64,000 bases of DNA, taken from NCBI GenBank assembly GCA_052327205.1, contig JBMRGM010000043.1:30876001-30940000 (forward strand). The letters run 5' to 3'. Below the pieces are notes generated by a model. That model was given only the letters and a program-made list of their open reading frames with translations, searched no databases and was not told the origin of the DNA. Every line of letters starts with the position of its first letter. Position 1 is the stretch's first letter. Positions 25,761-64,000 of the stretch are shown here, piece after piece. The position numbers and the translations under genes were made by a program. Origin of the DNA: Somniosus microcephalus (lineage: Eukaryota).

Positions 25761-26039
25761 TACAGTGAGCCCGAGAGAGGAACAATATTGTGTGGCTCAA
25801 GGAGATGCCCCATTTAAGCCTCGTTTTGGGCTTCAGTTATTTGAGAGTCGAATCACCTATTTGCTAAACATTACTGACGGAATTAAGCTCTCGGGACTTA
25901 AATGGTTAATCATGCCAGGGTGTACCACCTCCCTTACCCCTCTACCATTGCACCAGGCCACATACACAGAGCGGGAGTTGACCACTTCCCTAAGCCCGTG
26001 AAAAAAACAAGCCTTCACCCTGGGGCCACAGACCAGGCC

Positions 26040-26349
26040 AGTCTCTCTGTTAACGTTATAAACTGCGGTTAGAATAAATCATATTTGAAACAGTTTGAAC
26101 AGATTACTACGGCCTGGATTCCAACTGTTCGCTTCTGATAAGAATTCAGTTTAAAACCGACAGGGCTCAGGTAACTTTTCAGCGTTAGGGTGGATTCGTC
26201 ATCGTGTCCGGTTTAATTTCCTCTTGGCTCCAATGTGGTCAGACGTCACAGTGATCACAGTGTGCAGTCGGCTGGTGCATGGGCAGCGAGCAATACAGCT
26301 GCAGACTGCTCTCGGGGAACTCGCTCCAGCCGCTGTCTCCTCATTCCCC
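26040..26349 (+). promoter_or_regulatory. Putative promoter and non-coding first exon of gene B
   Basis: CpG-richer island ending in donor C|GTAAGT (26350); RUNX-type TGCGGT 26064 and TGTGGT 26234, Ets/PU.1-type TTTCCTC 26217; block conserved at ~55180-55489. Confidence 0.5.
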
Positions 26350-26531
26350 GTAAGTACCGACTCGGGATCTGCGCGTGCGGGCATTTGGTAATGAAGAAGT
26401 CGAACAGTGTCAGCGGCTGAATGTGATTCTATGATATCAGTTTTCAGGTGAACAGAACTGAAAACAGCTGATCCGAAGCGCGGGTCTTCACAGAGGGAGG
26501 TGGACTGCTTCTCGGATCCCCCGCATTCGAA

Positions 26532-26562
26532 ATGATTCACATCTGTCGCCTTCTGACCTTGT
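26532..26562 (+). CDS. Gene B leader exon S1 (MIHICRLLTL)
   Basis: Exon 26448-26562 with ttttcAG acceptor, ATG in gaaATG context, T|GTAAGT phase-1 donor; duplicate at 55672. Confidence 0.7.
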
Positions 26563-29500
26563 GTAAGTAAATCTCAAATATTTCCAGTGCCTTTGAAAAT
26601 CAACGTCACTCACCCCTGACCGTTAACCAGATTAATAAGACTCATTCAGTGAGAGGGTGCTTCACAGTAAATTAATATTCAGACTTTATTAAGGTCAAAC
26701 ATTCAATTATACTGCATTGAAATGTCATTTCCATGCTTCAGTTTTAATCAGAATTTAGTGGAACAACAGAAATAAGTTTGATTAGTCAGGCAAACAGGAT
26801 CTTTCTGCTCATCTAAGGTTGCAGCCGACCTTAGTCACATCTAAACGGTCCAATATTTATTATTTCACCAATTATTTAGCCTCACCTGCAGAAACTGCTT
26901 GCACGTTTCTTATTGTTGTCGTTTTGTTTATTAGAAAAAAATAAAATTTTTATGCGCTTCATCTCAAGTATCAGCGTTGGCTCAGTTGACTCACTCTTAC
27001 AAATTGCTCTTAATACATGCGGTGAGATTTACAGTGCGTGGGTTCTGTGGCTAGATGTTAAACTTGGTCCATGTCATTGCTTGATGATTTCGTGTGCGGC
27101 AGGCACGCTTCTTGTTAACAACTGCCACAGTGCGAGAGAGAGAGAGAGGGAGAGAGAGAGGCGGAGTGGGAGAGGGAGTCAGTGCGAAAGACAATCAGAT
27201 AGGGACAGAGAGAGACAGATAGACAGAGATTGTAAGAAAGTAACAATTAAGCTGTCCACGAAGGAGAGTGACAGAGAGAGAGAGAGAGAGAGAGGGCAGG
27301 AGTTTTTTTTTCAACTCAGTTTTGCAGATTCACGATGAAGGGCTTCTTTTATTTTCTGTTGTGAGGGAGAAAGTAGACATTAACGGGACGACAACACTTG
27401 AGTTAACAAAGCTGAGGAGAACATATTTACTATGATTATACTTGACCTAAACTGACGGCTTAAGGGTGTTTGGCAAGGAAATTTAAAATGCTGCATCTTT
27501 AAAATTAATTTCTGATGCTGTTTATTGGAATTTAGACAGAAATGACTCTTTATGGCCACAGGACATTGAGGCTGCCTTCCTGTGAGATGCTGACGTCAGC
27601 GCTCTATTGGCTTGTTAACCACTGGATCACAAGCCCAGCAAACAGGAACAAACAACAGGGTTTGCATCTTTAATGTACCACCGACTCTTTCACCAGAATC
27701 TCATCTATTTTAGTAACTTGACATTAGTTGTGGGACCATGTTGGTCACAGCTACTTCCACAGATTAATGAGGTAGAGCTTAAAATATGTGAAGTTAACCT
27801 CAAGTTGTTCATTCTTGAGCATATAATAGGCCCCATGATTTATTTGTTGCACAGCACATGAAACCCACTTTTTGGAAATATTGGCCTAACTGAATGCTTG
27901 AAACATTCACCCTATTGAATCCTAGCTGGACAAAAGTCCCAGGTTCTACATGTTGAACAATGAAATACAGACACATCTGCATTGACCATTGACCCTTTTG
28001 CAATTATATTTGCAAGGTTTGCAGCAGCAGGCATTGCCTTAGTAGTTTGATTCCTGTGGCCTGAGGCGCGACAAAAGCTTCCTGCTGCTTTCTGCTGCTA
28101 GCGGCTGGGTCATGTATTGTCTTCACGAGTATCAGTTGCAACCCAGGTAATACTTGTGATTCTGAATCGATTAAAGATGAGTTAACTGATGATAGGAACA
28201 TACCAACAGGAGTAGGCCATTCAGCCCTTCGACGCTGCTCTGTCATTCAATTATATGATGGTTAATCTGTACCTCCACTCCAATTACCCCACTTTGCTCA
28301 ACATCCATTGTTACGCTTACTCAACTAGTGTCAGCCGTGGCTCAGTGTATAGCATTCTCGCCTCTGAGTCAGAAGGTTCGTGTGATTCCGGTCCCACTAC
28401 AGGGACTTGAGCACAATCAACTAAGCTGATACTCCAGTGCAGTGCTGAGGGAGTGCCGCACTGTCGGATTGGCCGTTTTTTATAATAGACGTTAAAGTGA
28501 GGCCCCTTCCAGGGTGTTTATCCCTGGTGCCCTGGGCAATATTTGTCCCTCAATCAACATGACAAAAACAGATAATCTGGTCATTATCAACATCATTGTG
28601 TGAACATTGGCTGCCACATTTCCTACACTGACTAAACTTTAAAAGTCCTTCATTGGTTTTAAAACGCTTTGGGAAGTTCGGAGGTCTTGAAAGGCGCTAT
28701 AGGAATGCAACTATTTCTTTCATTTTTTAACGAAGATCTATCGATCTCCGTCTTGGAAGTACCAATTTACCCGCAAAATCCACAGCGGTTTTTGTAAAGA
28801 GCGTTGAAATTTCTCACTACACATTGTGTGAAAAAGTGCTTCCTGATTTCCATCCTAAATGGCCTATAAACAATTTTAATGAAATATTCCCTTCTCCTTG
28901 ACAGAACAATCACACTCATTGGCTCTCAGAACAATGATACATTTCAATATTTGTCAGTTTCCTTTCATCCGGCAGCAACTTTTCCATATAGTCCTCAGAC
29001 CATGGGGAACTTCCACAAAATAACAATTTATCTTTGTCCGTGAGAGGGACAATTGGCATCATTCGATATATTAATATTTTACATTTACTTCAACTGAACT
29101 GAATACCTCGTGGCATGTATGGACTGGCAGCAAATGTGTTTCCGCCTGTTTTGTGTCCCTGCCGAAGTCAAATTTCAACCCCTGGGTGTTTCCTCTATTC
29201 AGCTGCCTTACAGCTGAGCAGCTGAGGTCAAACTTGAAGATGGTCTCAGATAATGAAACATATTTTACATTGTCTTCTCTCTTGCAGTGCAAATTACTCA
29301 TCAGGCGACCACACAAGGTATGATGACAATAATGTCCTTTATTGATAATAATCCAGTTGTGGAATGAACGCTTCCAATTTATATCTATAGGACAACAACA
29401 ATCCAGCAATGGAGTAATTATCAGCTGTTCGCCCGTGCGTAAAACTGTGGTTCTGGACTCGCCACCTATGAGAAACTTTCGGTCATCATTTTCATTGATT

Positions 29501-44500: not shown

Positions 44501-47500
44501 ATTGATGCATTATAGGACTGGCACCACAATTACAGTATTTGTAAATGACAAAATCACTATTGGCACTTTGTAAGTTCCATCTCTCGGGAGTAGTATCCTT
44601 AGAACCTGCACACGAACTCCACTGTTCTGGTTTTTAGATAACTATTGTGTGGAATATCGTAATTGGCCAGACTCTTAATGTCACCATAAAATGCAACGAC
44701 GATAACAAATCCTTAATATAACTCGATCGATACAGTTGAAGGCAAGTAACGTGTACATTTGGCAAACATAATCCATTCTTGGACATTTAAATCAATGCTA
44801 TGCAATTAATGGTTATATAACTGAGGGGAATGATATGCTCTAATTCCATGCACTATATACATATTATGGATACTAATACGATTTTCTCAATTCATTATCG
44901 CTGTCAATTAATTTATACCAAGCAATCAGTCAGTCTAGCTCTGTAAATAGGTATCCATGTGTCCATCAATATCTTTCTATCTATGACTTTGCTCACGGGC
45001 CTGTGGAGCAGCTTTTATTGATCAGGTTAATTAGTTGCTTCATTTTAAAACCAGTGAACACAGCAGTAAATTTCCAATCATGAATTGTAGGATGGATCTG
45101 GTATCTAAGTGCTTCCTTGATTATCATTGATCGCAGTTTCCTCTTTCTCGCTCTACAGCTTCTAGTTCTGATCAGATAACCCACAGTTTAGTACAAGGCA
45201 CGAAGCCCATGGAAGGTAAGGATCCGCTGTGTTACTTTGCTGGAGGGCTTGTTAACTACTGTAAGGGTAGTGACTGTCTTCAGATTGTGAGACATCATCT
45301 GGGAAGAGCCTGAATCGATTGATGCATTATAGGACTGAAACCACAATACCAGTATTTGTAAATGAAAAAAATCACTATAGGCACTTTGTAAGTTCCATCT
45401 CTCAGGATTAGTATCCTTAGAACCTGCACACAAATTCCCCTGTTCTGATTCTTAGATAACATCATAATTGGCCGGACAATTAATGTTGCCATAAACTGCA
45501 ATGACGATAACAAATGCTTAATATAAGTCGATCAATAAAGTTGAAGGCAAATAATGTGTACTTTTGGTGGCAAACATCATCCATTCTTGGACATTTAAAA
45601 CAATGCTATTCAATTAATGGTTATATATCATCCTTATTAAACTTATGGAAATGACATCATCTATTCCCATGCACTAAATTCATATTATGGATACTAATAC
45701 GGTTGTCTCAATACATTATCGCTAGCAATTAATTTATATCAAGCAATCAATCAGTCTACCTCTGTAAATAGCTATCCATGTATCCATCAATATCTTTCTA
45801 TCTATGTATCTATCTATCTTTATATCTATCTTCCAAATATCTATGTATCTTTCTATCTATCACTCCATGTCTTCCTCCCTATTTCTCTATATATATCTAT
45901 CGTCCCTCTATCATCTATATATTAATCCATCTTAATGAAGCCTTATTTTTGTCTTGTTTTCTCTTTTTGTTTCTGTTTAGATATTACCGGAAATGCTGCC
46001 AATTTAGTGTATTCGGAGGTCACGATCAGAAAGTCACGAGGCTGTGGTAATTTCTGTCAATTGTTCGCAGCTGTTGCTAAGCAAGATGATAATTACAGTT
46101 CTACATAATGTTGGGTTATTCCTCTGCTTGATATAGTGGGAATGAGGTACATGGACTGTAAACTAAATAGTGGGGAGGGGGGAGGGTTCAGTTGAAGGGG
46201 AATTTAGAAAGTCAAACAGAAAGGAGGAGGTAACAGTGCAAGGTAGCGATAGGGGTAATGATAACCAGAGATTGACAGGAGGAGACAAAGCATACAGACA
46301 TAAACGTGCACTTGCAAACAGATTCAGAGTAGTTAAAAATGGTATAAAAATAAATAAAAGCTCTTTAACTGAATGCATGCAGCATTCATAACAGGATAGA
46401 TGAGTTGCCGGCACAAATCGAAATAAATGGGCATGATCTGATAGTCATTACAGAGACGGGGTTGCAAGGTGACCAATTCTGGGAACTGAATATTCAAGGG
46501 TATTTGATATTTCGGAAGAATAGGCAGAAAGCAAAAGGAGTTGGGTAACTCTTTTAATAAAGGATGTGATCAGTGCAGTGGTGAGAAATGATATTGGCTC
46601 AGAATATCAAAATATAGAATTTGTTTTAACGGAGATAATAAATAGTAAGGGAAATAAATCATTAGCGGGAGCAGTCTATAGCACTCCTAACTGTAGCTAC
46701 ACTGTGTAGGACAGTGTATAAATCAAGAACTAATAGGGGCTTGTAAGTAAGGTACTGCGATAATCATGGGCGATTTTAATATTCATATAGCTAGAACAAA
46801 TCTAATTGACAAGGTTAGCCTTGAGGTCGAGTTCATAGAATGTATTCGGTATGGTTTCTTAGAACAATACGTTGTGGAATCAACCAGGGTGATGGCTATT
46901 TTAAATCTGGTAATATGTAATGGGGCAGGATTAATTAATGATCTCATGGTAAAGGATCCTCTTGTGAAGAGCGATCATAGCATGATGAATTTCTAATTCA
47001 GATTCAGGGTGAGAAACTTGGGTCTGAAACTTAAATAAATTCAATTACAAAAGGTATGAAGAAAGAGTTGGCTAAAGTAGACTGGGAAAATAGATTAAAG
47101 TGTAAGACGGTAGATAGGCAGTGACAGATATTTAATGAGATTTTTCATAACTCTCAGCAAAGATTTATTGCAGCGTGCAAGAAAGACTCTACGAGAAGGA
47201 TGAACATCCGGGGCTAACTGACGAAGTTTAGGATGGTATCAAATTGAAAGAAAATGCATAATATGTTGCAAAGATTCGTAGTAGGTGAGAATTGGGAAAT
47301 TTTTGAAAATCAGCAAAGGATGACTAAAAAATTAATAGAGGTAGAAGATAGATTATGAAAGTAAACTAGCAAAGAATATAAAAAAACAGAGACTAAGAGC
47401 TTCAACAGGTATATAAATGAAAGATAATAGCTAAAGTAAACGTTGGTCCCTTAGATGATGGGACTGGGGAATTAATAATGGGAAACGGGGAAATTGCAGA

Positions 47501-50500
47501 GACATTTAACAAATATTTTGTATTGGTTTTCACGGTAGAAGACACAAAAAGCATCCCAATGATAATTGATAATCAAGGTGCTGTATTCACAATATATATC
47601 TAAAATTTGGGTGAGGGTCCCAAATGTAATATTTCCAAGTTTGCTGACATCACGAAACTAGGTGGGATTGTGAGTTGTGAGGAGGAGGCTAATAGGCTTC
47701 AAGCTAATTTAGACAAGTTGATTGAGTGGGCAAATACATGGCAGATGCAGTATAACATGGATAAATCTGAAGTTATCCATTTCAGTACGAAAAACAGAAA
47801 TGCAGAATATTATTTAAATGTTGATAGATTGGGAAATGTTGATGTACAGACGGACCTGGGCGTCCCTGTACACCAGTCACTGAAAGCAAACATGCAGGTG
47901 CAGCAAGCAGTTAGGAAGGGAAATTGAATGTTGGCCTTCATTGCAAGAGGAGTTGAGTACAGGAGCGAGGATGTACATTTATACAGGGCCTTGATGAGAC
48001 CTTGGGAGTACGGTGTACAGTTTTGTTTTCCTTACCTAAGAAAGGATATACTTACGATAGAGGGAGTGCAGCGAGGGTTCATCAGACTGATTCCTGGGAT
48101 GGCAGGACTGTCGTCTGAGGAGCGATTGGGCCGACTAAGCTTTATTCACGAGAGTTTAAAAGAATGTGAGTGTATCTCATTCAAACGTATAAAATTCTGA
48201 CAGGGCTAGACAGACTGGATGCAGGGAGGATGTTTCCCCCGGCTGGTGGATCTAGAAGGATTGGTTACATTCTCAGGATGGCGTACATTCAAGGTTCTTA
48301 AATGAAGTGGCTGCAAAGATAGTCGATGCATTGGTTGTAATCAACCAAATTTCCCTGGATTCTAGAGAGCTCCCAGCGGCTTGGAAATTCGCAAATTTAA
48401 CGCTCCAATTGAAGAAAGGAAAGAGGCCAAAAGCAGGAAGCTATTGGCCAGTTAGCCTTACATCTGTCATTGGGAAAATGATGGAATCCATTATTAAGGA
48501 ATGAATAGCAGGACATATAGAAAATCATAATGCCATCTACTTGAGTCAACATGGTTTTATGGAAGGGAAATTGTGCTTGACAAATTTATTGGAGTCCTTT
48601 GAGGATGTAACGAGGAGTGTGGATAAAGGGGAACCAGTAGATGTAGTGTATTTGAATTTGCAAAAGTCATTCGCTATGGTGCCAGATAAAAGGTTACTGC
48701 ACAAGATAAGAGCTCTCGGGCTTGGGGGTAATATATTAGCATGGATAGAGGATTGGCTAACTAACAGAAAACAAAGAGTCGGGATAAATGGGTCATTTTC
48801 CGGTTGGCTAACTGTAACTAGTGGGATGCCACAGGTATCAGTTCTGGGGCCTCCACTATTTACAATCTATATTTATGACCTGGCCAAATTTGCTGACGAT
48901 ACAAAGGTACATGAGAAACAAGTTGTGAGGAGGACACAATTAGTTTGCAAAGGGATATAAATATGTTAAGTGAGTGGGCAGAAATTCGGCACATGCAGTA
49001 TAATGTGGGAAAATATGAGATTATCCACTTTGGTAAGAAAACTAATGAAACAAATTATTATTTAAATGGGGAGAGACTACCTAATGCTGCCATACATAGG
49101 GGACTGGGTGTCCTCATACTTGAAACACAAACGGTTAGCATGCAAGTACAGCAAGTAATTAGGAAGGCAAATGGAATGTTGACCTTTATTGCCAGGGGGT
49201 GGAGCATAATAGTAGGGAAGTCTTGCTACAACTGGAGTATTGCGTGTAGTTCTGGTCCCCTTATTTCAGGCGGGATACACTTGCATTGGAGGCAGTTCAG
49301 AGATGGTTCACTAGGTTAATTCCTGAGATGAAGGGGTTGTCTAAAGAAGAAATGTTGAGCAGGGTGGGCATTTACGCATTGGAGTTTAGAAGAATGAGAG
49401 GTGATCTTATTGAAACATATAAGATTCTGAGGGTGCTTGACAGGGTAGATTCAGGGAGGATGTTCCCCCTCGTGGGGGAATCTAGCAGTAGTGGACAAAG
49501 TTACAGGATATGGGATCGCTCTTTTAAAACGATGATGAGGAGGAATTTCTTCTCTGAGGTTGTGAATCTTTGGAATTGTCTAACCCAATGAGCTGTGGAG
49601 GCAGAGTCATTGAGTATATTCAAGGTGGAGATAGACATATATTTGAGCTACAGGGGAGTTAAGGGTTTTGAGGAGCGGATGGGAAAGTGGGGATGAGGCC
49701 AAGTCAGATCAGTCATGGTCGTATTGAATGGTGGTGCAGGTTCGAGGGGCCGAATGGCCTACTCTTGCTCCTATTTATGTTTCTCATGAAATATCACGTA
49801 GATGTTATTAGCAGGTGTAATTTTAACCTAACTCAGCCTGGTCGAAAAGGGACTGGGTCTGGTGAAATCCCTGTTGTCAATCGCACCCAATTTTACTCTC
49901 CTACTACAAGGGAGAGTAAAGTCCATTGGGTGTACACCCACCCTGAAATTGTCCCGATCTCGTCAGTTTACTGCCAGGGTGGGTGATACTAAAATGACCC
50001 CGGATTAGGCTGGATTAATCTGATTCTGTTCATCAACTTCCCCAGATTGTTGCCTTTATAATGCATCTGCTTTATTTACAGATAATGATGATGGCGCCTC
50101 AGGAAGGAAACAGGTAAGTTTTCTTTAGAGGGGAAAGATGCTGGTGAGAAATATCACGACCAATGCGGGTAGATTTCTAACTAACCTTCGCAAAGTAAAC
50201 TGTCGGCCATCAGTTTTAGCAATGGCCCGATTGAAACACACACCCTTATCAATAAGATATTCCTTTGGACTGTGAAACGAGCAGCACATTCGCTGTCCAC
50301 CCGTTATGGTCCCACACTGCCCAAAAGCAATTTTAACCCCGATGTCTATTATTCTCTATCATTGGGACAGATATGCTGCTTGCGACTTGGGCTTAAAGAG
50401 GGCGATGACGGTCTTTCACACAGAATAGAAAACACACATTTTTAATTTGCAATGATTTGAATTAAAAATAGAATCCGGCGGTTCCAGTCGACGCCAGTTT

Positions 50501-51714
50501 TAAGCCTGGGCCGAATTTGTGAAATCTAAATCATTCTGTCTGCAAAGGTCGCTGCTAAACTTGCTCCACACCACTAAAGTAGCCCCTGATTAGTAATTTA
50601 AATCCCGACCATTATTTTAAAATTCAGTTGCCAGTTGTTTACAGAATAATAAAGAACATTGTAGTTTTGTTCCACCGAAAGATCATTGCAAATATGGGTG
50701 CAGTAGCTTCGTGGTTACATAACTGGATCAATAATCCAGAGGTCTCGACTAATGGTCCGAAGACATCAGTTCAAATCCCAGCACTGGCAGCTGGGGAAAG
50801 TAAACTCAGTTAATTAAATACATCTGGAATAAATAGCTCATAACAGTAATGGTGACCATGACACACTCTGGTTGTTGTAAAACCCAACTAATGTCCTCAA
50901 GGAAGGAAATTGGCTGTCCTTACCTGGTCTACCCTGTATGTGACTCCAGACTCACTAGCAATGAGGTTGACCCTTAACTGCCCCTAAAATGGCCGAGCAA
51001 GCCAATCAATTGTACCAAACTGCAAGAAAAGGCATTAACCCTATGGGAACACCTCCCCCTCCAAGTCACACACCATCCTGACTTGGAAGTATATTGCCAT
51101 TCCTTCATCGCTGCAGGGTCAAACTCCTGGAACTCACTCCCTACCAGCACTGTGGGAGCACCATCACAACACAGACTGCAGCGTTTCAAGAAGGCGGCTC
51201 GCCACCATCTTCTCAAGGGCAATTAGGAATGGGCAATAAATGCTGGCCTTGCCAGCGACGCCCACATCCCGTCAATGAATAAAAAATTATCATCGCTTGT
51301 TTAAATTTAGTCGGTGGTTTATTCATTGCTCGTTTCAATCCAACCATTTTATTTTGATTTTTAACTATAAAAGTAAATTAATAGAGGAATTATAAGTGAA
51401 ATTGTGTGAGCTCAGCCAGTTAATTGTCAGTAGTTTTGACCATACTGTAAATCGGGCAATATTGAATTGGCCATCCATTATCCATCTCTCCCGACTTCCC
51501 TTCCACTGAAATCACCACTGATTCTCTCTCGCCAGCTGTGCGCCACCACCTGAGACAATTTCAGCCCCATATTCTTTAATTCCAGGATAACAAGATTGGT
51601 CCCAGCGACTATTGTGTCACGTACGCCACAGTTAACCGCACAAACACTGAAGCTAGTTTGGAAGGACGTCCAATGGAAGAAGGCTGTGTCTACGAAAACC
51701 TTCCACGGAAATAA
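26532..51714 (+). CDS. Gene B: FCRL-like inhibitory receptor, ~576 aa if the two dead Ig exons are skipped (26532-26562, 28102-28146, 31617-31871, 33688-33954, 36355-36633, 37513-37800, 40584-40685, 41211-41241, 43242-43333, 44323-44379, 45159-45215, 45981-46046, 50082-50113, 51586-51714); otherwise a pseudogene
   Basis: The 14 exons join to an open 1731-nt frame: leader MIHICRLLTLSAGSCIVFTSISCNP, 4 Ig domains, TM and ITIM tail. Confidence 0.65.
27133..27295. repeat. Imperfect (GA)n microsatellite (paralogue ~56289-56430)
   Basis: Direct inspection. Confidence 0.85.
28102..28146 (+). CDS. Gene B leader exon S2 (SAGSCIVFTSISCNP)
   Basis: 45 nt, phase 1-1, ctAG / G|GTAAT; completes a plausible signal peptide; near-identical at 57233-57277. 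Confidence 0.65.
28330..28725 (+). mobile_element. tRNA-derived DeuSINE (SacSINE1-like), nested in an antisense CR1 tail; paralogue ~57460-57850
   Basis: GTGGCTCAGTG A-box head, ACTCCAGTGCAGTGCTGAGGGAG, core GGCAATATTTGTCCCTCAATCAACAT, tail GAAAGGCGCTATAGGAATGCAA. Confidence 0.75.
29690..31300 (+). mobile_element. CR1 fragments (decayed RT 29690-29940, antisense 3' end ~29945-30130, 3' fragment ~30250-31300)
   Basis: QGSVLG, KFAD, HLEYCVQFWSPYLRKD and VVNLWNSLP motifs plus tail. Confidence 0.85.
31617..31871 (+). CDS. Gene B N-terminal Ig exon (type F: HVPEVVL...EGETFYLQC...HWYKD...ASYQC)
   Basis: ctacAG / G|GTAGG, 255 nt, C-W-C Ig signature. Confidence 0.85.
33688..33954 (+). CDS. Gene B second Ig exon (type G: LTLEVNP...GDSIILKC...LWYRD...DTAPYRC)
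   Basis: ttttgcAG / A|GTTGG, 267 nt, C-W-C Ig signature. Confidence 0.85.
34743..35019 (+). pseudogene. Gene B dead Ig exon (type A)
   Basis: Homologous to 313-588/6376-6654, but the acceptor is AG>CG (34741-34742), a 1-nt deletion in a T-run removes the first Cys, and TAG/TGA stops lie near the second Cys. Confidence 0.85.
36355..36633 (+). CDS. Gene B Ig exon (type B)
   Basis: tatAG / C|GTGAG, open 279 nt, both Cys present. Confidence 0.88.
37513..37800 (+). CDS. Gene B Ig exon (type D)
   Basis: ttacAG / G|GTGAG, open 288 nt. Confidence 0.88.
39464..39753 (+). pseudogene. Gene B frameshifted membrane-proximal Ig exon (type E: VPAAGASL...LFLQC...FRWY / ...GGRYHCVATN...YIDVTVP)
   Basis: 290 nt (not a multiple of 3); in-frame TAG at 39586-39588 after WYS; the second half of the Ig domain is in another frame; donor T|GTAAC. 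Confidence 0.85.
40584..40685 (+). CDS. Gene B transmembrane exon (AQSHTTAITATVLPLFLIAALIALVFFKLRKQKQ)
   Basis: ttccAG / G|GTGAG, 102 nt. Confidence 0.88.
41211..41241 (+). CDS. Gene B cytoplasmic exon 1
   Basis: Same sequence and phases as 11582-11612. Confidence 0.8.
43242..43333 (+). CDS. Gene B cytoplasmic exon 2 (FEYAVV motif)
   Basis: cacAG / G|GTAAG, 92 nt, phase 2-1. Confidence 0.78.
44323..44379 (+). CDS. Gene B cytoplasmic exon 3a with ITIM IIYSVV
   Basis: ctgcAG / G|GTAAG, 57 nt. Confidence 0.8.
45159..45215 (+). CDS. Gene B cytoplasmic exon 3b, ITIM inactivated (ITHSLV)
   Basis: ctacAG / G|GTAAG, 57 nt; TAC>CAC at 45182-45184. Confidence 0.78.
45981..46046 (+). CDS. Gene B cytoplasmic exon 4 with ITIM LVYSEV
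   Basis: Paralogue of 15520-15585 with intact splice sites. Confidence 0.83.
46130..49790 (+). mobile_element. CR1 fragment cluster, paralogue of 15670-19670 with an internal deletion at ~48285
   Basis: MGDFN, KFADITKL, QHGFMEGK and KFADDTK motifs. Confidence 0.9.
50082..50113 (+). CDS. Gene B cytoplasmic exon 5 (DNDDGASGRKQ)
   Basis: Paralogue of 19959-19990. Confidence 0.8.
51586..51714 (+). CDS. Gene B last coding exon (DNKIGPSDYCVTYATVNR...GCVYENLPRK*)
   Basis: Phase-0 acceptor, ITIM VTYATV, YEN, TAA 51712-51714. Confidence 0.85.
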   Translation, partial: DNKIGPSDYCVTYATVNRTNTEASLEGRPMEEGCVYENLPRK

Positions 51715-54700
51715 GAGTGAAGCAGGATTAAAAAGCATGGATACAACAAGAAAACAGAATGGAGGCAACGACAATCAACTTGTGCTCTGTGCAAACTACC
51801 TGCCCTCAGGGACTTTAGTCTGAAGGCAGGTTAGGCCATTGTTCCTTGTGCAAGGCCTCCTAGGCACAGCGTTCCTGCCCGCCAGCCATTCAATTTATAC
51901 ATATGTTTTACTCTGACAGGACTTTATATCTCGAGGGATATCATGTCGCAAGCTTTGCAGCTGATATTTTGCACAGGGAACCTACGTGTGGCTTTGGTGG
52001 TGCTACGTGCAAGTCTATACAGTGTGTAAGAATATTGCACCGGAACGTACACCCAGGCTAGCCATGTTCTAATGCAATTAGTTAATGGATGCGTTTGGGG
52101 CTCTTGCTCTCTTGTTCCGCCAGTGTACTTGCATTCTTCCAAAACTGCAGAGGGAGATCAGTGGATCCCCTGGAGAAATTATGCAAATGCCCGAAGATGA
52201 TGGGAGAAATCCTGTAGCAATTTCTAGGGTCAATTTTATCTTAAGTCATGTTGTAAAATGAATGTTATCGAACTGACCACCTATGTGACCCCATGACCCC
52301 ATGACATATTTCCTTTTCCATTAACTTCAATGTAAAGTAAAACCGGGCATGCTGTATAATGGGAGCCTTGATTGATATCGTCCATTTGCCACTCTCGCCC
52401 AATATTCAAATTATTCCAATCTATATGAATGCCACAAAAAAACTGTGTATAGAGTAAGTGGTTACTGTTTAATCTTCATCAATTGGGAGTTTAGCATTGC
52501 ATTGGCAGAGCGCAGGGTAGAATATCTGGTGGGAAGGATGGCCCATTACTTGCCAAGCCCATCGAATTTTGCTTTCTTTCAACCTTCAAAAAGCAGGCCG
52601 TTCCGTTACCGGCATCCCTTGTGCCAAACTTTCCTTCCACGTTCCGGCAGTACAGACTGAACTTTACCTCACCACATATTAGTGCCAGATGCATAAGACA
52701 TAGCGTTTTGTAATGCTACATGGATGATGGGATTTTTAAAATTTACACGGAATTTAAAGCACAGTAACTGGCATTCTGCCCAAGTGGCCTGTGCTGGCGT
52801 TTATGTTCCACACGAGACTCTTCTCACCTTCCCTCATCTAATCCTATCAACATATCCATTTTGTAACATATAACATAAAAACATAAGAATTAGGAGCAGG
52901 AGTAGACCATATGGTCCCTCGAGGCTGCTCTGGCGTTCAGTAAGATCGTGGCAGATCTTCGACCTTAACTCCACTTGCCCGCCCGATTTCCATATCCCTT
53001 GTTTGAACTAGAATCCAAAAATCGATTTTATCTCAGCCTTGAATGTACTCAATGATTCTGCATACACACCAAATTGGGGAAGTGCATTACAAAGACTCAC
53101 AACCCTCTGAGTTAAGAAATTCCACCTCATGGCTGACCCCATAACCTCAGACTATGTCCCCGAGTTTTAGAATCTCCAGCCAGGGGAAACTGCCTCTCAA
53201 CATCTATCCTGTAAATCCCCCCAGAATCCTAGATCATCTCTCATTCTTCTAAATCCCAGTGAGTATGGTCCCAATCTACTCAATATGTCCTCTTCGGACA
53301 ACCCTCTCATCCCGGGAATCAATCTAGTGGACCCTCATTGAACCGCCTCTGTGATGGAGACCACAAAAGGACACAATACTCTAATGTGGTCCAACAACAT
53401 TTCTATACAAATTTAACATGGCTTCTCTCCTTTTCCATTCATTTCCTCTAGAAATGGACTCCAATACTTCGGTAGCAACTTGTTTTTCTAATTTTAATGA
53501 TTTGTGAATGTGCACCCCTGGATCCCTTGCTCCTCTACCCCATTTAGATTCTAATTTTTCGAGAATAATGTGGCTTCCTCATTCCTCGGACCAAAATTCA
53601 CAACCTAACTATGTTAAAATTCGCTTGCCATGTACACGCCCATTCAGCATGTTTATTAACGTCTTTTTGTATTTTATCGTGCTTCAACAATAACTGTTTT
53701 AATCGTTGAATAATAAATACAATTTTAAGAAATATTCCCTGTTGTTCACAGATTGACATCAAGTGTAAGTCTATTCAGAACGATTTCAACCAAACCTTCT
53801 GCTAATTCAATGCACAAATACAGTGGCTTTAGTTTGTATTTAGGGAATGACCATACGGTACTGCCTGGAGACTCCCTCCAAATGAGTGGGTAGGACAGGG
53901 GAGGGAAAATATATTTCTGATGTCTTTAACTCATATTCCGCTGCATATTTAAAATATATATATTTATTTTAATCACTAAATATTCTGGGATGCGGCACAA
54001 TACGAAAATGGAAACAATTAATTTTGATGATGGCGCCAAAACGATTAATCTCTTTTTCTAAAAGTTAGAGAAAGGAATAACAAAAATTCTGTTAGTTCCT
54101 TATGGGCATTCCATATATTGTTATAGCGCATTGTCGGTCTGTTTTATCTACCTATCGATCTATCTTTTTGTGTTAGATTTACTAATTATCTAACTATGTG
54201 TCTGTTTATTCATCGTCAGTATCACAAATAATCAAAGGCATGCAACAATAGGACAATTGAAGTTCCAATTATGGATTGTACCAGTAGAATAGTACAGGTA
54301 CTAACCATAGACTCTGTCAGTGGGACAGTATAATTGACAAACAAAGGCCTGTACGAGTAGGACAATAAAGTTTGAAAAAGACCTGCAGCAATAGGACAAT
54401 TTAAACAGTCATCAAAATATCTGATCTAGTATAGGTACTACTCATAGGCATGCACATATAGGACAGTATAACAAATGATTAGAGACATGCAGCAGTCGGA
54501 CATTATAGGCACTATTTATAGAGCTGTACCAGAAGGACAGTGAATGTACTGAGCATTGCCCGCCACCTGTAGGGCTATATATGTACTGATTACTAACTGC
54601 ACGAGTAGTAAATTAAAAATTCCTTATCCAGTGTCTCTTTATCGCTCCCAGTCATAGACAGACACCAATTGAACTGCGCAGATTCTAATTAGAGTTCGCC

Positions 54701-55671
54701 ACAATAGTAAAGAATTGGTATTTATTGGAGATCTGGGCAAAGAGGACAGTATCACTACCAATAGCTGAACTGTACTAGAAGTGCTATCTAAGCACTAATC
54801 ATATACATTCTGCAGTAGGAGAGTCGAGGCAGCAATCATAGACCTGCACCAGTAGGTGATATCTAGAGTGAGCCCGAGAGAGGAGCAATACTGTGCGACT
54901 CAAGGAGATGCCCCATATAAGCCTGGTATTAGGCTTCAGTAATTTGAGGTTCGAATCACCCATTTGCTAAACATTAATGACGAGATTGAACTCACGGGAT
55001 TTAAATGGTTAATTGTGCCAGAGTGTAACAGGTTCAGTGGTCCGATTTTTCGCTGGTATCAGCACTTCGCCTCCCTTCCCCCTCTAAAGTTGTACCAGGC
55101 CACATACACAGAGCTGGGGTGACCGCTTCCCTAAGCCTGTGAAAAAACAAGCCTTCAGCCTGGGGCCACAGAGCAGGCCAGTCTCTCTGTTAACGGTATA
55201 ACTGTGGTTAAAATAAATCATATTTAAAACAGTTTGAAGCGGTGTCTCCAGCATGGATGCCAACTGTTCGCTTCTGATCAGAATTCATTTTAAAACTGAC
55301 AAGGCTCAGTTAACTTTTCAGCGTTAGAGTGGACTCGTCATCACGTCCGGTTTGATTTCCTGTTGTCTCCAAAGTGGTCAGAAGTCAGACTGATCTCAGT
55401 GTGCAGTCGCCTGGTGCATGAACAGTGAGCTCCACAGCTGTAGACTGCTTCTTGGGGAACTCGCTCCAGCCGCTGTCTCCTCATTCCCCGTAAGTACAGA
55501 CTCGGGATCTGTGCGTGCAGGCGTTTGGTACTGAAGAATTAGAACAGTGTCAGCGGCTGAATGTGATTCTATGATATCACTTTTCAGGTGAACAGAACTG
55601 AAAACAGCTGATCCGAAGCGCGCGTCTTCACAGAGGGAGGTGGACTGCTGCTCGGATCCCCCGCATTCGAA

Positions 55672-58600
55672 ATGAAGCACATCTGTCGCCTTCTGATCTT
55701 CAGTAAGTGAATCTCAAATATTTCCAGTGCCTTTGAAAGTCAACGTCACTCACCCCTGACAGTTAATCAGATTAATAAGACTCATTCTGTGAGAGGGATC
55801 ATCACGCTATATTAATATTCAGAGATTATTAAGGTCAAACATTCATTTAAAATGCATTGAAATGTCATTTCTATGCTTCAGTTTTAATCAAAATTGAATG
55901 CAACAACAGAAATATGTTTGCTTAGTCAGGCTAACAGGATCTTTCTGCTCATCTAAGGGGATCCCTCTTTACTATTAAAGGTTGCAGCCCACTTAAGATT
56001 GCTTCTAAACGGTCCAATGTTCATTATTTTACCAATTATTTAGCATCACCTGCAGAATCTGGTTGGACATTTCTTATTGTTCTAGTTTTGCTTATGAGGA
56101 AAAAAAAAATTTATACGCTTCATATCAAGTATCAGCGTTGGCTCAGTTGACTCACTCTTACAAATTGCTATTAATACATGCGGTGAGATTTAAAGTGCCT
56201 GGCTTCTGTAGCTAGATGTTAAAATTAGTCCGTATCATTGCTTGATGATTCGAGATCCACAGGCAAGTTTCTTGTTAACATCTGCCACAGAGAGAGAGAG
56301 AAAGATAGAGAGCAAGAGAACGGCAGAGCGAGAGAGAGATAGGGACAGAGAGAGACAGATAGACAAAGATAGGAAGAAAGTAACAATCTAGATGTGCACG
56401 AGGGAGAGTGACAGAGAGAGTGAGAGCGAGGGCAGGAGTGGTTTTCAACTCAGCTTTTCACATTCACTATGAAGGGCTTATTTTATTTTCAGGTGTGAGG
56501 GACAAAATATATATTAGCGGGACGACATCCCTTGAGTTAACAAAGCTGAGGAGAACACATTTACTATGATTTTACTTGAGCTAAACTGACGGCTTTAGGG
56601 TGTTTGGCAGGGAAATTAAAAATGCTGGATCTTTAAAATTAATTTCTGATGCTGTTTACTGGAATTTAGAGATAATTGACTCTTTATGGCCACATGACTT
56701 TGAGGCTACCTTTGTGAGATGCTGACGTCAGCGCTCTATTGTCTTGTTACCCACTGGACCACAAGACCAGCAAACAGGAACAAATAACAGGGTTTGCATC
56801 TTTAATGTACCACCGACTCTTTCACCAGAATCTCATCTTTTTCAATAACTTGACATTAGTTGTGGGACCATGTTGATTAAATCTAGTTCGACAGATTAAT
56901 GAGGTAGAGCATAAAAGATGTGAAGTTAATCTCAAATTGATCATTCTTAAGCATATAATAGGCCCCATGATTTATTTGTTGCACAGCACATGAAACCCAC
57001 TTTTTGGAAATATTGGCCTAACTGAATGCTTGAAACATTCACCCTATTGAGTCCCAGCTGGACGAAAGTCCCAGCGTTTACATGTTGAACAATGAAATAC
57101 AGACACATCTGCACTGATCATTGACCCGTTTGCAATTATTTTTGCAAAGTTGCAGCGACAGGCATTGCCTTAATAGTGTGATTCCTGTGGTCTGAGGCGT
57201 GATAAAAGCTTTCTGCTGCTTTCTGCTTCTAGCTGCTGGGTCATGTATTGTCTTCACGAGTATCAGTTGCAACCCTGGCAATACTTGTAATTCTGATTAG
57301 GTTAAAGATGAGTTCACTGATAATAGGAACATAACAACAGGAGTAGGCCACTCAGCCCTTCGAGACAGCTCTGTCATTCAATTATATGATGGTTGATCTG
57401 TACCTCCACTCCAGTTAACCTACCTGGCTCAGTATCCATTGTTACCCTTACTCAACTAGTGTCAGCCGAGGCTCAGTGTATAGCATTCTCGCCTCTGAGT
57501 CAGAAGGGTCGTGGATTCCGTTCCTACTACAGGGACCTGAGCACAATCATCTAAGCTGATACTCCAGTGCAGTGCTGAGGGAGTGCTGCACTGTCGGATT
57601 GGCTGTCTTTCGGATGAGACGTTACAGTGAGGCCCCTTCCAGGGTGTTTATCCCTGATGCCCTGGGCAATAGTTGTCCATCAATGACGTAACAAGAACAG
57701 ATAATCTGCTCATTATCAACATCATTGTGTGAACATTGGCTGCCACATTCCTACAGTCACTTAACTTTCAAAGTCTTTCATTGGTTTTAAAACGCTTTCG
57801 GAAGTTCGGAGGTCTTGAAAGGTGCTATAGAAACGCAACTATTTCTTTCATTTTAATAAATAAATGATCGATCTCCATCTTTAAAGCACCAATTTACGTT
57901 CCTCTAAAGTCTCATCATCCTGTAACACATCATGTCCTTCATCCAATTGCCACTATTGTTCAATCTTTCTGAAGGTTCTTCCTTTGGAATTCGTGTCTTA
58001 GCTCTCTTGTCCCTCTCCTCCTTAACCCAGCATGTACAAGGGCCGACACAATCCCTGTTGTTCATGGCCCCAGCCAAAGCTGTCACACATTCACCAGTCA
58101 CTATTTCACCTTCATCTAGCCAACGGCCCATTCTAAGATGGATAATTCAACCTCCTCAAATTCCTTTCATTCTATGTCTTTTCCAAATTAATTTTTAATT
58201 AACTTTGCAAGCAGTTCTGCTAAACAAACTTCAAATTCTATCTGTAGAGATTATAATATGGTTATTAGTAACAATAGTCGAAACAAAGGTTGGGCCTTCA
58301 CTGTCCAAATTAACAAAGTCAAAACCCAAAATTACATACAACAGATATAGCAGGCCTGGCTGGGCGATCCTATGGACCCCTGTGTGGAATGTTTATGCCT
58401 CACCTAATCTAACCGATTAAATTCATTGTCTCAAATTATAATGCACGTTTTCCAGGAAAAGGAAACTTAATCAGTCACTCACTTCTCTCAAGCCGAAACA
58501 TACAGTCATGTAAACACAGTATTATTGGTGTAGCCATATACATTTTTAGCCACCCCTAGTTTCTAAAAGTGCTTTTCAGAATAGGTATGCATCTGGGCAA

Positions 58601-61426
58601 GGGGCAGAACAATAAGTTGCAGCATCACTCGTGGTTAGTGTGAGGAGGTGATGTGGCTTAAAGGATTTGTAATTCACTATATGGGAACAACTTAAAGGTT
58701 TCTGCACGTCTTTTCTGCATTAATGCATTTAATGTACGTTTGTAAATATTTAGAATTGAGATGACTGAATATATTTGCTGTTAAACAAAGCCAACTGTAC
58801 AACAATATTTACTACAACTTGCTGAATTTGGTCTCTTCCTATTTTATCCAGACAATTCTTCAAGAATTTCACAACTGGGGTAAGTCCGAGAATTTTTTAT
58901 ATAAATAAGACATCGTGATACCCCTGAATATTTCTGTATAGCTGAATTAAATGTTGTAAATGTTTGTGCGGTAGATTTTTAACTTGCTTTGAGCTTAAAT
59001 CTGGCATTGGTATCAACTGCCTATTATAGAAATCGTCTCATTGTATTTCATTTGAATTCAATGGGATTGAAAATCATTTGCTTTCTACAACCGGAGCCAG
59101 TTCCGCGATGCCACTTTTAAGCTGGGTGGCAAGTTGAAAATATGTCCCTTTGACTATAGGCATCAATAGTAGCTCGCACTCACACTATTATACTCTCTGC
59201 AGTCTGGAAGAAGTGATCTTTTTTCTAATTTATGTCAGTTGTACCTAAAGTTCCTAGCCTAAACTGAGTGAAATTCGCCCTGCATAGTTCAGTAAAAGGG
59301 ACAATTACAAATCGTTTTACAGTCCACACGAAATTAGATTCCAGTGACTTGTGAACGATTTTGTGAAGAAGACTTTATACCCCAAACTCTCCATCACTCA
59401 GTGAGCTTGGCCATTCTTCAATCCTCACATTTAATCATCATGTAAATCACAGGGAACTGAAGCATTCTCGGATTTAGTGTGCAGGGCGATTGTGCATGTA
59501 TTTAATTTTAGTAACATTCAAAGAGTGACTATCTCAGACAGTGCTCCATTTAACTGAACACGCTTTTCTGGATACAGTTCTAAATTTAGTAGCCTTGAAA
59601 CCTTTTGTTGGGAGCGAATATCTCGTCCCCTTGTGAATCCAGTCACAGATTGTTGGCCGACTCTACTATACTGGAACTCTTTCCACATGTGTTTCAACCT
59701 CTTACTGAAAGTTGCTTGAAATTCCGATATGCTTCCATGGCCCTCAATTTGAAACTGTAGTACAATCTTCTTGAGCTTCGGTATAAACACATATCTGTAT
59801 ACAAAATCACCAATCCACTCATTATCATAAATAGTTTTGCCAAAAACTTCTCACTCTTCTTTCAAGACTGCACTTTATCAAAATACTCTAACTCCTTTCA
59901 AGGCTCTGTCTCACAGGTTTTGGAACCAACCTTCTGACTCAGCTGTAATATTCAGGAAGAGTCTAGTATGTTTTTTTAAATGAAAATGATATAAAAATTG
60001 TACTCCCTGCGCCAGATGTGGGAAATCTGCTGGGCAGAACACAGAAAGGAAGATCTGGTGGGAAGGATCTCTTGCTGAAAGCAGCAATGCTTGATTTCTG
60101 TTCCATTAAGTACCGTGAATGGAAAATCTGGCGTGTTGTGTTAAGGATGTGTGAAACTCTGCACCACATTCTCCTCTTTGCGTTCCTTCAACATGATTCT
60201 TAAAAAAAATGGCAGGAAAAAACATTTTACCCCATGAACTTGCAAAAATACCAACTAACATTTTAAGGTGATCTCTCTTGATTTATAAGTTACACGGTTG
60301 TGATGTATCTCAATATTCTCTACACTTTCCTAATTCCCTTTCAACTCTGCACCCACAGTTTTTCCAAACAGATACCCAAATATCAAAGATACAATCTTCC
60401 ATTTATTCGGTATTGACATCTCCCTTCCATTTAGGACACAATCGTGTGAAGTTCATTTTATGGTGGAGTTGAAAACAGCTGCTAATGGATCGCTGGCCAC
60501 TTTTACCCACCGCCTGATTTTGTTTCCAAATTCAGCTGAAGTGTAAACCGAGTGGTTAATCCTCTACCGCCCGCTTTCTGCTGGACGGTAAAAGTGAATA
60601 CTAACATCAACTTTCCAACTTGCCGCTCCAGAATAAACTGGCATTATTGTCAGCCATCCATTAGAGATAGCGCCCGATTTTCCTTTGAATTAATTTCGAA
60701 TTTAGAATAATGCGGCGAGTGCTGTTACTGGGCTTCGATTCCTCCACCAGATTTTTCAATTCTGTACTTGTCCCAGTTGATTCTTACTGCCCAGGCGGTA
60801 ATGTCGATCATATACACACCTCCAGCTGTCACTCTTAACAGTTAACAATCTTCAACGATGAGCAGTATAACTTCATCTGGGGCCACAGCACACAGCGAGC
60901 ACTAGTGAAAATGTGTCGCTTTTTGGACTCCGCCGATTTGAATTTCCATAAATTATAATGGTTCAAAAATGATCTGGAGGACTTCTAAACGGACATCCAT
61001 TTCGCTACCTCTCGCTTTGAGCTGTCTTCAAGGACCAAATTCAACTCCAGTTAATCAAGTTGAGTGAACACTGGAAAATTTCAGTGAGATCATTCAGGAT
61101 CTGCTGAGACTAGGTCTTCAGACCCCTTGGGAGGAAAGTGCCAGAGCCCGGGCCCCTGTCTACCTTGAGCTTCTTCAACTTATCCAATTGATGTGGCCTT
61201 GCGATTTTAAAGAATTGTCTCTTGTAAACTGCTTGCTGATTTTTGACAATTAATCTACGATTTCATTTTATTTAAAAGTGATAGTTCCGTTGTTGGTGAT
61301 TATTGTTAACTTTAATCTCTGAAAACATATCTGCACCAAGGGAGACAACTAGAAACAGACCTCCAGGTGAAGAGAAGTCTGCAGACAATTCCGAGTATGC
61401 AGCTGTGGAATCAGCGCAAAGCACCG
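55672..61426 (+). pseudogene. Gene C: chimeric/truncated FCRL-like locus (S1 55672-55702, S2 57233-57277 with GC donor, tail exons 58852-58879 and 61341-61426 with ITIM SEYAAV); no Ig or TM exon; probably continues past the window
   Basis: Leader exons duplicate those of gene B; homology to the gene B intron ends at 57897; the next recognisable exons are divergent versions of cytoplasmic exons 1 and 2. Confidence 0.65.
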
Positions 61427-61805
61427 GTAAGCTCGACCTAATCTGCATGTGATGAACCGTAGATTGTTCGGGGTAACATTTCCAGCGGGAGCACTCTCAA
61501 TACTGTTATGGCTTCGGTGGAAGATCGGCGAAATCTCCAGACAGATGAGCCTTTCTGCAAGTTTTCAACCGAAATTCCACAGAAGTTACGACGAGGCTGT
61601 GGGAAAAGCCGCATAGAAATTCTATTTCCTCATCTGCGTACATTCAACACAATATAGCGTTAGATTTTCCCCTTCACCGTCTGGACTTTCAGCATCAATA
61701 TCTCTAACAATTTCTCAAAGTCTATGTCAAGTCTATTTCTATGTCTCTGCCTATGTCTATGTCTCTGTCTATCTCCAGCTCTATGCCGAAATCTATGTCT
61801 ACCTC

Positions 61806-62928
61806 AAAAAGAAAATACTGCAGCTGCTGGAAATCTGAAATAAGAACAGTAAATACTGGAGATACTCAGCAGGTCAGGCAGCATCTGTGAAGAGAGAAAC
61901 AGAGTTAACGTTTCAGGTCGATGACCTTTCATCAGAACTGGAAAAAAGCAGGAAACAGAACAGATTTATAAGCAAATGTAGGAGCTGGGAAAGGGGGGAG
62001 GGTATGAAAGAACAAAAGGGAAGGTCTGTGATAGGATAGAAGGCTGGAGAGGTTAAGAGACATTAAGAGATATTCAAGGCAAAAGGAATTCGTAATGGGG
62101 CAGGTTAAGGAATAAAGGATAGCTCTAGATGAAGTGTAAATTGCGCTGGCAGAATGAAAGACAGTTGCCATGTGTGAGGGAAGAACAGAAGGCACAAACA
62201 AAAAATGTGGATAAATCATATATATCTGATAGAGGCCGAGGTTATGTTCTGAAATTGTTGAACTCGATATTGAGTCCAGAAGGCTGCAAAGTGCCTAATC
62301 GGAAGATGCGGTGCTGTTCCTCGAGCTTACGTTGAGCTTCCATGGAACAATGCAAGAGGCCGAGGATGGTGAGGTCTGAGTGGAAATGGAGCGGTGAATT
62401 AAAGTGACAGGCGGCCGGAAGCTCGGGGTCACCCTTAAGGACTGAACAGAGGTGTTCCCCAAAGCGGTCACCCAATCTGTGTTTGGTCTCCCCAATGTAG
62501 ATGAGACCACATCGTGGGCAGTGAATACAGTATACTAAATTGCAGGAAGTACAAGTAAATCGCTGTTTCACCTGGAAGGGGTGTTTGGGGCCCTGGACAG
62601 TGGGAAGGGAGGAGGTAAAAGGGCATGTGTTGCAAATCCTGCACTTTCATGGGAAGGTGCCGGGTGAAGGGGAAGGGGTGTTGGGGTTGATACAGGAGTG
62701 GACAAGGGAGTCGGGGAGGGAGCCGTCCCTTCAGAATGCTGAAAGTGGAGGTGAGGGGGAAGATGTGTTTGGTGGTGGGATCACGCTGGAGGTGGTGGAC
62801 ATAGTGGAGGATGATCCGTTGAATGTGGAGGCTGGCGGTGAAAGGTGAGGACAAGTGGAACTCTATCGTGGTTCTGGGAGGGAGGGGCAGGGGTGAGGGC
62901 AGGAGTGCGGCAGTTAGAACGGACACGG
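61806..62928 (-). mobile_element. Penelope-like retroelement 3' fragment with a GIY-YIG endonuclease
   Basis: ORF 62242-62571: FTCTSCNLVYCIHCPRCGLIYIGETKHRLGDRFGEH...HFN...E...GLN; possible TSD TCTATGTC(T/A)ACCTC. Confidence 0.88.
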
Positions 62929-63160
62929 TCTATGTCAACCTCCATCACTATGTCTATAACTATCTCCATGCCTATGTCTAGCTCTACCTTTATATCTCTA
63001 TCTCCACGTCCAACTCTCTTATCTATATCTCTCTGTATATCCTAGTCTCTTGCATTCAATCTCACTCTATTGCTCTAACTCTCTATCCTTTGTACCTATC
63101 TATCTCTATCTCTCTATCTGTCTGTATATATCCATTTCTATCTCTATCTCTCCTCTCTCT
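62929..63160. repeat. Low-complexity (CTAT/CTATGT)-rich tract, continuing at 61700-61805 and 63915-64000
   Basis: Direct inspection. Confidence 0.7.
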
Positions 63161-63914
63161 ATGGGCTGGATTTTTCGATCGGAGCCTTCCTGCGGATGGA
63201 GGCCTCCGATCGGAAAATATATAACATATAAGAACTTATCTGCTGGCTGCATAGGTCCCTCGACTTCCGATCCTGGGCCTCTGCTCTACGAAATATGCAG
63301 AGGCCCAGTTATCTCAGGGGTGCAGGCGGTTCGCAAGCGTCCCTGGGATCACGTGGGCCATGGGGAGTGGGCCATGGGGAAACAATCAAAGATGGGAAAC
63401 CCCCTTCACACTTTTGAAAGGTCTCTACTCACAGATCTTTCAAAAGTATGAAAGGGGATCACTTACAAATAAGTTAAACATTATTGTTTTTCAAATCCCT
63501 TTTTAAAAATTAGTTAAAATTACATTAAATTAAATATTTTGAAGAAAAATTTGTTTTTGAAAAAAATATAGTTTTTTAAGGAGGTATTATAAATACCTAC
63601 ATTATAAATGTGAAAAAATAATCATTTTTTGTTTTAATTTCTTATGCTGGTGAAAGCAAGCATTACACCTGTGTTTACCAGGCGTAAGATTTTGAAAGCT
63701 TTTCAGCAGGCAGAAGTTGTGCAGAAAGCGGAATTCTTCACCGGCGGAGGTCCTTTTCCCGGGCAGGTGGAGGATCTGTTAAGAAAATTCTTGACAGATC
63801 GGATGAGCCGGGTTTTAATGCATGCGCTTCACATGCCTGAAACTGGCACTTGCGAGGTCCCTACAGGTGAGTGCACAACTCGTACATACCCGGTGTGGGA
63901 AAACCGGCCCCATA
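63160..63914. mobile_element. MITE-like element, same family as 3664-4375
   Basis: TATGGGCTGGATTTT...AAAACCGGCCCCATA imperfect TIR; shares CTTCCGATCCTGGGCCTCT, CTGGGATCACGTG and ATTCTTGACAGATCG. Confidence 0.7.
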
Positions 63915-64000
63915 TCTCTAACACTATCTCAATGACCAAGTCTATGTCTAGCCGACTTCTGCATATTTGTCCATGTCTATGTCTGTGTCTATCTCGAGCT

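Follow-up and report, generated by a model that had tools for sequence, protein, structure and literature searches.

A blunt deletion joins a leader exon to tail exons of two FcR-like paralogs in Somniosus microcephalus and probably left a non-functional remnant

The genome of Somniosus microcephalus contains a locus at which the promoter region and a leader exon of an immune receptor gene are followed by tail exons, with the immunoglobulin (Ig) and transmembrane (TM) exons missing in between. This raises the question of whether the chimera encodes a useful peptide or is debris of gene turnover. The locus belongs to the analysed window, a stretch of 64,000 nucleotides (contig JBMRGM010000043.1, hereafter C43, positions 30876001-30940000; positions without a contig name refer to the window), which lies inside a large tandem array of shark FcR-like (FCRL) genes. 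A preliminary description had read the locus as a promoter and leader fused in frame to a tail with immunoreceptor tyrosine-based inhibitory motifs (ITIMs) and had considered a decoy or adaptor, a pseudogene and an assembly join. The analysis described here suggests that the chimera is very probably a real and young deletion scar and, as such, most likely a non-functional remnant.

Two undeleted units of the array show the gene order B-C-D-E-F, and both parents of the chimera were found by comparison with them. The described break of homology to gene B at 57897 could be reproduced (25440-28770 versus 54543-57897, 86.6% identity). However, gene B was rejected as the source of the promoter and leader part because this part is about 87% identical to gene B but 99.05-99.2% identical to paralog C. 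Indeed, the window from 50001 to 57897 shows 99.05% and 99.2% identity to two loci that continue into the Ig-bearing paralog C, and the p-distance between the 5' segment and the C copies is 1.1-1.3%. The 3' segment is 99.0-99.7% identical to paralog D over 26 kb (C43:31545920 and 31831698 onwards) and 99.2-99.3% over 39 kb through gene E. With both parents identified and the junction mapped to the base (Table 1), the idea that a deletion between paralogues made the chimera is confirmed.

The deletion comprises 51,627 bases in comparison with one undeleted unit and 47,568 bases in comparison with the other, the difference being mostly a 4.3-kb long terminal repeat (LTR) element in one D copy. 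The join connects the intron downstream of the first leader exon, S1, of C to the intron between the TM exons and the first tail exon, T1, of D. A hybrid formed by unequal crossover (non-allelic homologous recombination) could be rejected because the join is blunt and connects unrelated introns that share no base (0 bp) at the breakpoints. The blunt junction suggests that non-homologous end joining is the likely mechanism. With the deleted part, the true second leader exon (S2) and every Ig exon were lost, as were the two TM exons. The absence of Ig and TM exons, previously described for 57278-58851, was borne out by tblastn and blastn for 55703-58851, and none of the six stop-to-stop frames of at least 70 amino acids in this interval matched an Ig or TM exon. 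The LTR retroelement (C43:31541614-31545902) has an open frame of 1107 residues and a 5-base target duplication. It is located 12 bases ahead of the D position that corresponds to the right breakpoint and occurs in one of the two D copies; no causal link to the deletion was shown.

The same base-exact junction is present at C43:30978506/7, 44.6 kb downstream and in different surroundings. For the survey of the array, about 1.24 Mb of C43 were fetched, a set that does not include C43:31680001-31720000 and most of 30.3-30.75 Mb, so that all array counts are lower bounds. Two of 40 listed matches span the junction, and two copies of it were found in the fetched DNA. The chimera copies differ by 0.38% to the left and 0.74% to the right of the junction, and they have seven substitutions on the left and six on the right in common that are absent from the parent copies compared. 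The identical junction and the joint substitutions on either side of it suggest a single deletion followed by duplication. Thus, a blunt deletion of about 50 kb would have joined S1 of paralog C to T1 and T2 of its neighbour D once, and the product would have been copied by unequal exchange within the array. In the second chimera (C43:30976249-30998780), another deletion, of about 51.7 kb, lies at 30984903, 2.9 kb past T2. On the 3' side of this deletion, three open Ig exons, a TM exon with arginine and a tail were observed that lack their own promoter; these orphan exons could be driven, although without S2, by the C promoter and S1 of the second chimera.

What remains of the leader was judged against the rest of the cluster, in which the signal peptide is split over a 31-bp S1 and a 30-bp S2. 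In the preliminary description, a segment of 45 bp (57233-57277) had been taken for S2 and its donor for GC instead of GT. GC does follow 57277, but the segment is not the S2 exon of the family. At the donor position of 51 copies, TC was found 29 times, GT nine times (all B type) and GC nine times, four copies being other or unparsed, and 20 of the 48 parsed copies have an in-frame stop within the segment. A chimera-specific lesion was rejected because undeleted copies of C, F and D share the GC and the segment is no exon. As far as the sequence comparison goes, the GC in all likelihood does not function as a splice donor. The product of the true S2 matches residues 11-20 of the shark proteins P0001, P0002, P0004 and P0005 and the corresponding stretch of P0003. 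In P0001, P0002, P0004 and P0005, the N-terminus starts with the 10 residues encoded by S1 and continues with 10 that resemble the product of the 30-bp exon; the matching stretch of P0003 has the same composition, and the N-termini of P0006 and P0007 are unrelated to S1 and S2. Because the true S2 of C begins 514 bp beyond the breakpoint and thus inside the deleted part, the chimera has lost it. With respect to the proposed compatibility of the splice phases, S1 indeed ends and T1 starts in phase 1, but the supposed S2 between them is no exon of the family.

The reading of the tail exons T1 (58852-58879) and T2 (61341-61426) proved correct as given, and their assignment to an ITIM tail did not. 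Of the TM exons of the array, 17 are uncharged and 15 carry an arginine close to the start (arginine in 15 of 15 versus 0 of 17). T3, T4 and T5, the exons with the motifs of the family that resemble ITIMs and immunoreceptor tyrosine-based switch motifs (ITSMs), follow all 18 non-Arg T2 exons and none of the 17 T2 exons of the Arg class, both chimeras included; these counts stem from tandem duplication within about four and five lineages and do not represent independent events, and two of the 17 Arg-class tail windows are just 5.7 kb long. None of T3, T4 and T5 is present in the 10 kb that separate T2 of the chimera from the next gene, and parent D lacks them as well. Disrupted downstream tail exons had been named beforehand as an outcome that would speak against the proposed fusion, and it is the outcome that was observed. 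Divergent T3, T4 and T5 exons beyond the window were found neither by blastn nor by tblastn with T3 of gene B and four shark tails. Moreover, candidate terminal exons at two positions, C43:30942290 and 30942490, were dropped, their donor and acceptor not being conserved across the Arg-class lineages. The two of 17 Arg-class T2 exons that do not have the early stop listed in Table 1 carry a frameshift with an earlier stop.

Table 1 Coordinates of the chimera, its exons and the exon used for comparison (positions in the window)
Feature	Position	Strand	Basis
5' part, derived from paralog C (promoter region, S1 and ~2.2 kb at the start of the following intron)	55300..57897	+	99.05%/99.2% identity to undeleted C copies (ends at C43:31494292 and 31784129)
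3' part, derived from paralog D (starts in the TM-T1 intron and runs beyond the window into gene E)	57898..64000	+	Identity to D copies at C43:31545920+ and 31831698+
Deletion junction C/D, blunt, 0-bp microhomology	57897..57898	.	Base-level comparison with both undeleted pairs; recurs at C43:30978506/7
Coding part of leader exon S1 (10 codons and one further base), GT donor in phase 1	55672..55702	+	Same length and place in compared copies; agrees with residues 1-10 of annotated shark FCRL proteins
45-bp segment formerly called S2, likely intron, no exon	57233..57277	+	Donor counts, stops; absent from N-termini of annotated shark FCRL proteins
Gene B: true leader exon S2, 30 bp	29288..29317	+	AG / 30 bp / GT / no stop in 38/38 copies found
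Tail exon T1, TM-arginine class, 28 bp, phase 1 to 2	58852..58879	+	Identical to parent D in both copies
Tail exon T2, TM-arginine class, starts in phase 2, sole tyrosine (SEYAAV), weak acceptor	61341..61426	+	Identical to D
T2 donor read-through, double TGA after 8 codons, predicted frame end	61427..61455	+	Same early stop in 15/17 T2 exons of the class

If the chimera is transcribed and spliced from S1 to T1 and T2, the frame is open and, with read-through of the T2 donor, ends at 61450. The resulting low-complexity peptide of 56 residues would have a halved leader and a single permissive tyrosine motif but no anchor, and it would not work as an inhibitory receptor. Targeting to the endoplasmic reticulum is doubtful because the hydrophobic stretch is shorter than that of the parent leader (mean hydropathy over 11 residues of 0.8 versus 1.75). 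Moreover, the chimera does not have the layout of an FCRL receptor, with no complete two-exon leader, no Ig domains and no TM segment. In both undeleted copies of parent C, two Ig exons contain stop codons and the TM donor has become TT, and both copies of parent D have no match to Ig1, a frameshifted Ig3 and a fragment of Ig5. Among the options offered previously, the pseudogene fits best, given a leader cut to 10 residues, the lack of ITIM and ITSM exons and the broken state of parent C. On the strength of these features, the chimera is likely a pseudogene remnant and part of the debris of birth-and-death evolution.

Several observations weigh against this assessment. S1, T1 and T2 are open and in frame and have kept their splice sites, the promoter region is still about 99% like that of C, and the remnant has been retained and duplicated. 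Six reads of RNA run X6 near 55576 bear a letter that is common to the chimera and the B-type genes and thus fit either. Furthermore, D could make a shorter receptor by skipping its broken exons, as the Ig exons are phase-1 cassettes, and it may not be a pseudogene. With 145 coding bases at about 1% divergence, the intact frame, splice sites and promoter region have no power in either direction. In the RNA runs X5 and X6, of unspecified tissue and read to 24% and 31%, the bins of T1 and T2 have a depth of 0 and no exon-exon joint was listed; this silence is weak evidence because the whole family is hardly read in these runs.

One functional alternative is that the C promoter expresses the 56-residue peptide in the cytosol, where the phosphorylated SEYAAV motif would bind SHP-1/2 or SHIP as a decoy. 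The permissive ITIM consensus is (S/I/V/L)xYxx(I/V/L), and SEYAAV fits it. In addition, the S1-T1-T2 frame is open, SxYxxV is retained in nine of the 17 Arg-class T2 exons and the chimera exists in two copies. However, the tyrosine is lost in the other eight, none of the 18 non-Arg T2 exons has an ITIM consensus at this site, the T2 acceptor has a poor pyrimidine tract, and T1 and T2 have no reads in the two RNA runs, although this point is weak. A peptide without a membrane anchor would also have nothing to place it near a kinase. The decoy or adaptor of the preliminary description has lost both of its supports, as the true S2 is gone and the tail is of the TM-arginine class, which has no ITIM and ITSM exons. 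A decoy is very improbable, and it is about equally improbable that the anchor-free peptide competes in the cytosol for SH2 phosphatases in shark leukocytes, retained for this role in two tandem copies within a paired activating and inhibitory FCRL system. Similarly, there is little reason to expect that the C promoter and S1 serve as an extra upstream promoter, with splicing past T1 and T2 to gene E, whose true S2 is about 19 kb further on, or to the orphan Ig-Ig-Ig-TM(Arg) exons of the second copy, which would change the site of receptor expression. All exons concerned are in phase 1 and open, the deletion moved S1 of C about 50 kb nearer to E, and A-type genes across the array are preceded by orphan units of S1 or S1+S2. 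However, the RNA runs offer no support, E has its own S1 with the 3' end of D intervening, and the product of the second copy would have no S2 and hence half a leader.

An assembly error that collapsed part of the near-identical tandem array is highly unlikely, even though the array contains many 99% repeats. Among 16 of 14163 pieces listed, no bridging contig was present, and the junction was thereby neither shown nor excluded since a high-copy repeat at about 57440-57650 swamped the matches. Moreover, run X1 shows the undeleted continuation of C at 57897 and has the parent letters at six chimera-specific sites (55576, 57078, 57769, 60432, 60904 and 61599). However, Logan contigs drop variants, and X1 may show the parent or an individual without the deletion. 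A collapse would join homologous points, whereas unrelated introns are joined here. The base-exact junction occurs twice in different surroundings, in copies that have diverged on both sides, and the 7 left and 6 right joint substitutions, absent from the compared parents, indicate that both sides evolved together. The deletion scar thus remains the preferred reading.

The surroundings of the remnant are those of an FcR-like array because the Ig exons of gene B match human FCRL5 and FcgRI, the best PDB matches for three of three exons searched, as well as seven shark proteins (58-75% identity), all seven of which are named Fc receptor-like. By its Ig domains of the FcR D1-D5 type, as read from the sequence, the cluster is a member of the FcR/FCRL family. 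A 401-base promoter probe gave at least 43 matches, all on C43 and mostly at 30.3-31.9 Mb (40 of 77 candidates scored). Among 52 plus-strand S1 units in the fetched DNA, 21 reach the next S1 without an intervening Ig exon; many of them are tandem copies of one event, and one unit runs across a gap in the fetched DNA. Each A-type gene is preceded by a tandem series of orphan S1+S2 and S1-only units (e.g. C43:30857973 and 30863572), which are possibly alternative promoters or debris. A second, independent loss of the ectodomain was observed at C43:25364759-25379630, where S1, the true S2, an Arg TM, T1 and T2 are present and no Ig exon was found. This unit would encode a leader, a TM segment and a short tail; its paralogs have stronger S2 and T1 donors. 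Hybrids with a B-type ectodomain, a G-type Arg TM and a short tail, that is, an inhibitory-type ectodomain on the other class, are located at C43:31058410, 31130008, 31200102 and 31274202. Gene B is itself damaged: Ig3 (34735-34810) is reduced to 76 bases in all B copies scored. Its Ig6 (39455-39760) has no open phase-1 exon in the window copy and is open in other B copies. Furthermore, T3 of gene B is duplicated (44324-44379 and 45159-45217), the second copy being without tyrosine, and the last tail exon, near 51590 and far past T4, carries ITSM-like and final tyrosine motifs.

Taken alone, the remnant is of minor importance, an example of how blunt deletions strip ectodomains from genes of this array and how the resulting scars are duplicated. 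Of greater interest are the surroundings: genes with uncharged TM segments and ITIM/ITSM exons are cleanly split from genes with Arg TM segments and no such exons, and the genome contains an FcRg-like exon. This paired layout is the more interesting side finding of the analysis. It extends over C43:30.55-31.9 Mb and 25.3-25.4 Mb, with uncharged TMs and T3/T4/T5 on one side and Arg TMs without these exons on the other, and includes an apparently intact Arg-class gene with six open Ig exons (C43:30806349-30847400). The FcRg-like TM exon is located on C40 (L142:1501-1584, minus strand) and was compared with the PDB. Another TM exon, on C14 (L141:1501-1587, plus strand), is one that we take to be CD3zeta-like. 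An NxxR motif near the TM start is a feature of XFL, LILRA and NKp46. The TM segment of parent D carries the full NxxR, which is present in two of the 15 Arg TMs, those of D type. In the available text of PMC2413239, this motif is tied to FcRg-coupled activating receptors. Judged by its TM segments, the Arg class may consist of such receptors.

FcR-like genes have been stated to be lacking in cartilaginous fish in the accessible parts of a study from 2014 (PMC4016189) and of a review from 2026 (PMC13337447). Contrary to this statement, NCBI names Fc receptor-like proteins in four sharks, and expression of fcrl3 and fcrl5 in bamboo shark B cells is mentioned in the available text of PMC11372145. 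Literature searches for FcR-like genes together with sharks or Xenopus features, with most subscription papers outside their coverage, found no publication on a paired shark FCRL cluster. If the decoy existed, it would be a cytosolic competitor within a paired FCRL system, in a lineage that the review, as far as its accessible part goes, lists as lacking FcR-like molecules (PMC13337447). The array shares with the FcR/FCRL genes (human FCRL1-6 and FcgRI; shark 'Fc receptor-like protein 2/3/5') a leader over two short exons, phase-1 Ig cassettes and multi-exon tails with tyrosines. In contrast, the chimera has neither Ig nor TM exons and half a leader.

In the KIR, LILR and FCGR clusters, deletion-fusion pseudogenes and hybrid genes join parts of neighbouring paralogs. 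These hybrids usually arise from unequal crossover at homologous points and keep the full receptor layout. The chimera resembles them as a rearrangement within a tandem array of immune receptors, but its join is blunt and non-homologous, and the ectodomain and TM segment were removed. Parallels are also provided by the paired XFL receptors of Xenopus, as they appear in the available text of PMC2413239. They likewise form a large intermingled cluster with an uncharged-TM class bearing tyrosine tails and an Arg-TM class, and they have been shaped by birth-and-death, exon recombination and the formation of gene fragments; one X. laevis cDNA with a tail but without a TM segment is also mentioned there. 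According to the same text, mammalian S2 exons follow a rule of 21 bp, whereas those of the shark array have 30 bp. Moreover, the TM1 type of XFL has NxxR and a short tail within the TM exon (PMC2413239), whereas in the shark array NxxR occurs in two of 15 Arg TMs and T1 and T2 exons remain downstream. Unlike in XFL, the Arg TM of the shark is plainly derived from the uncharged TM.

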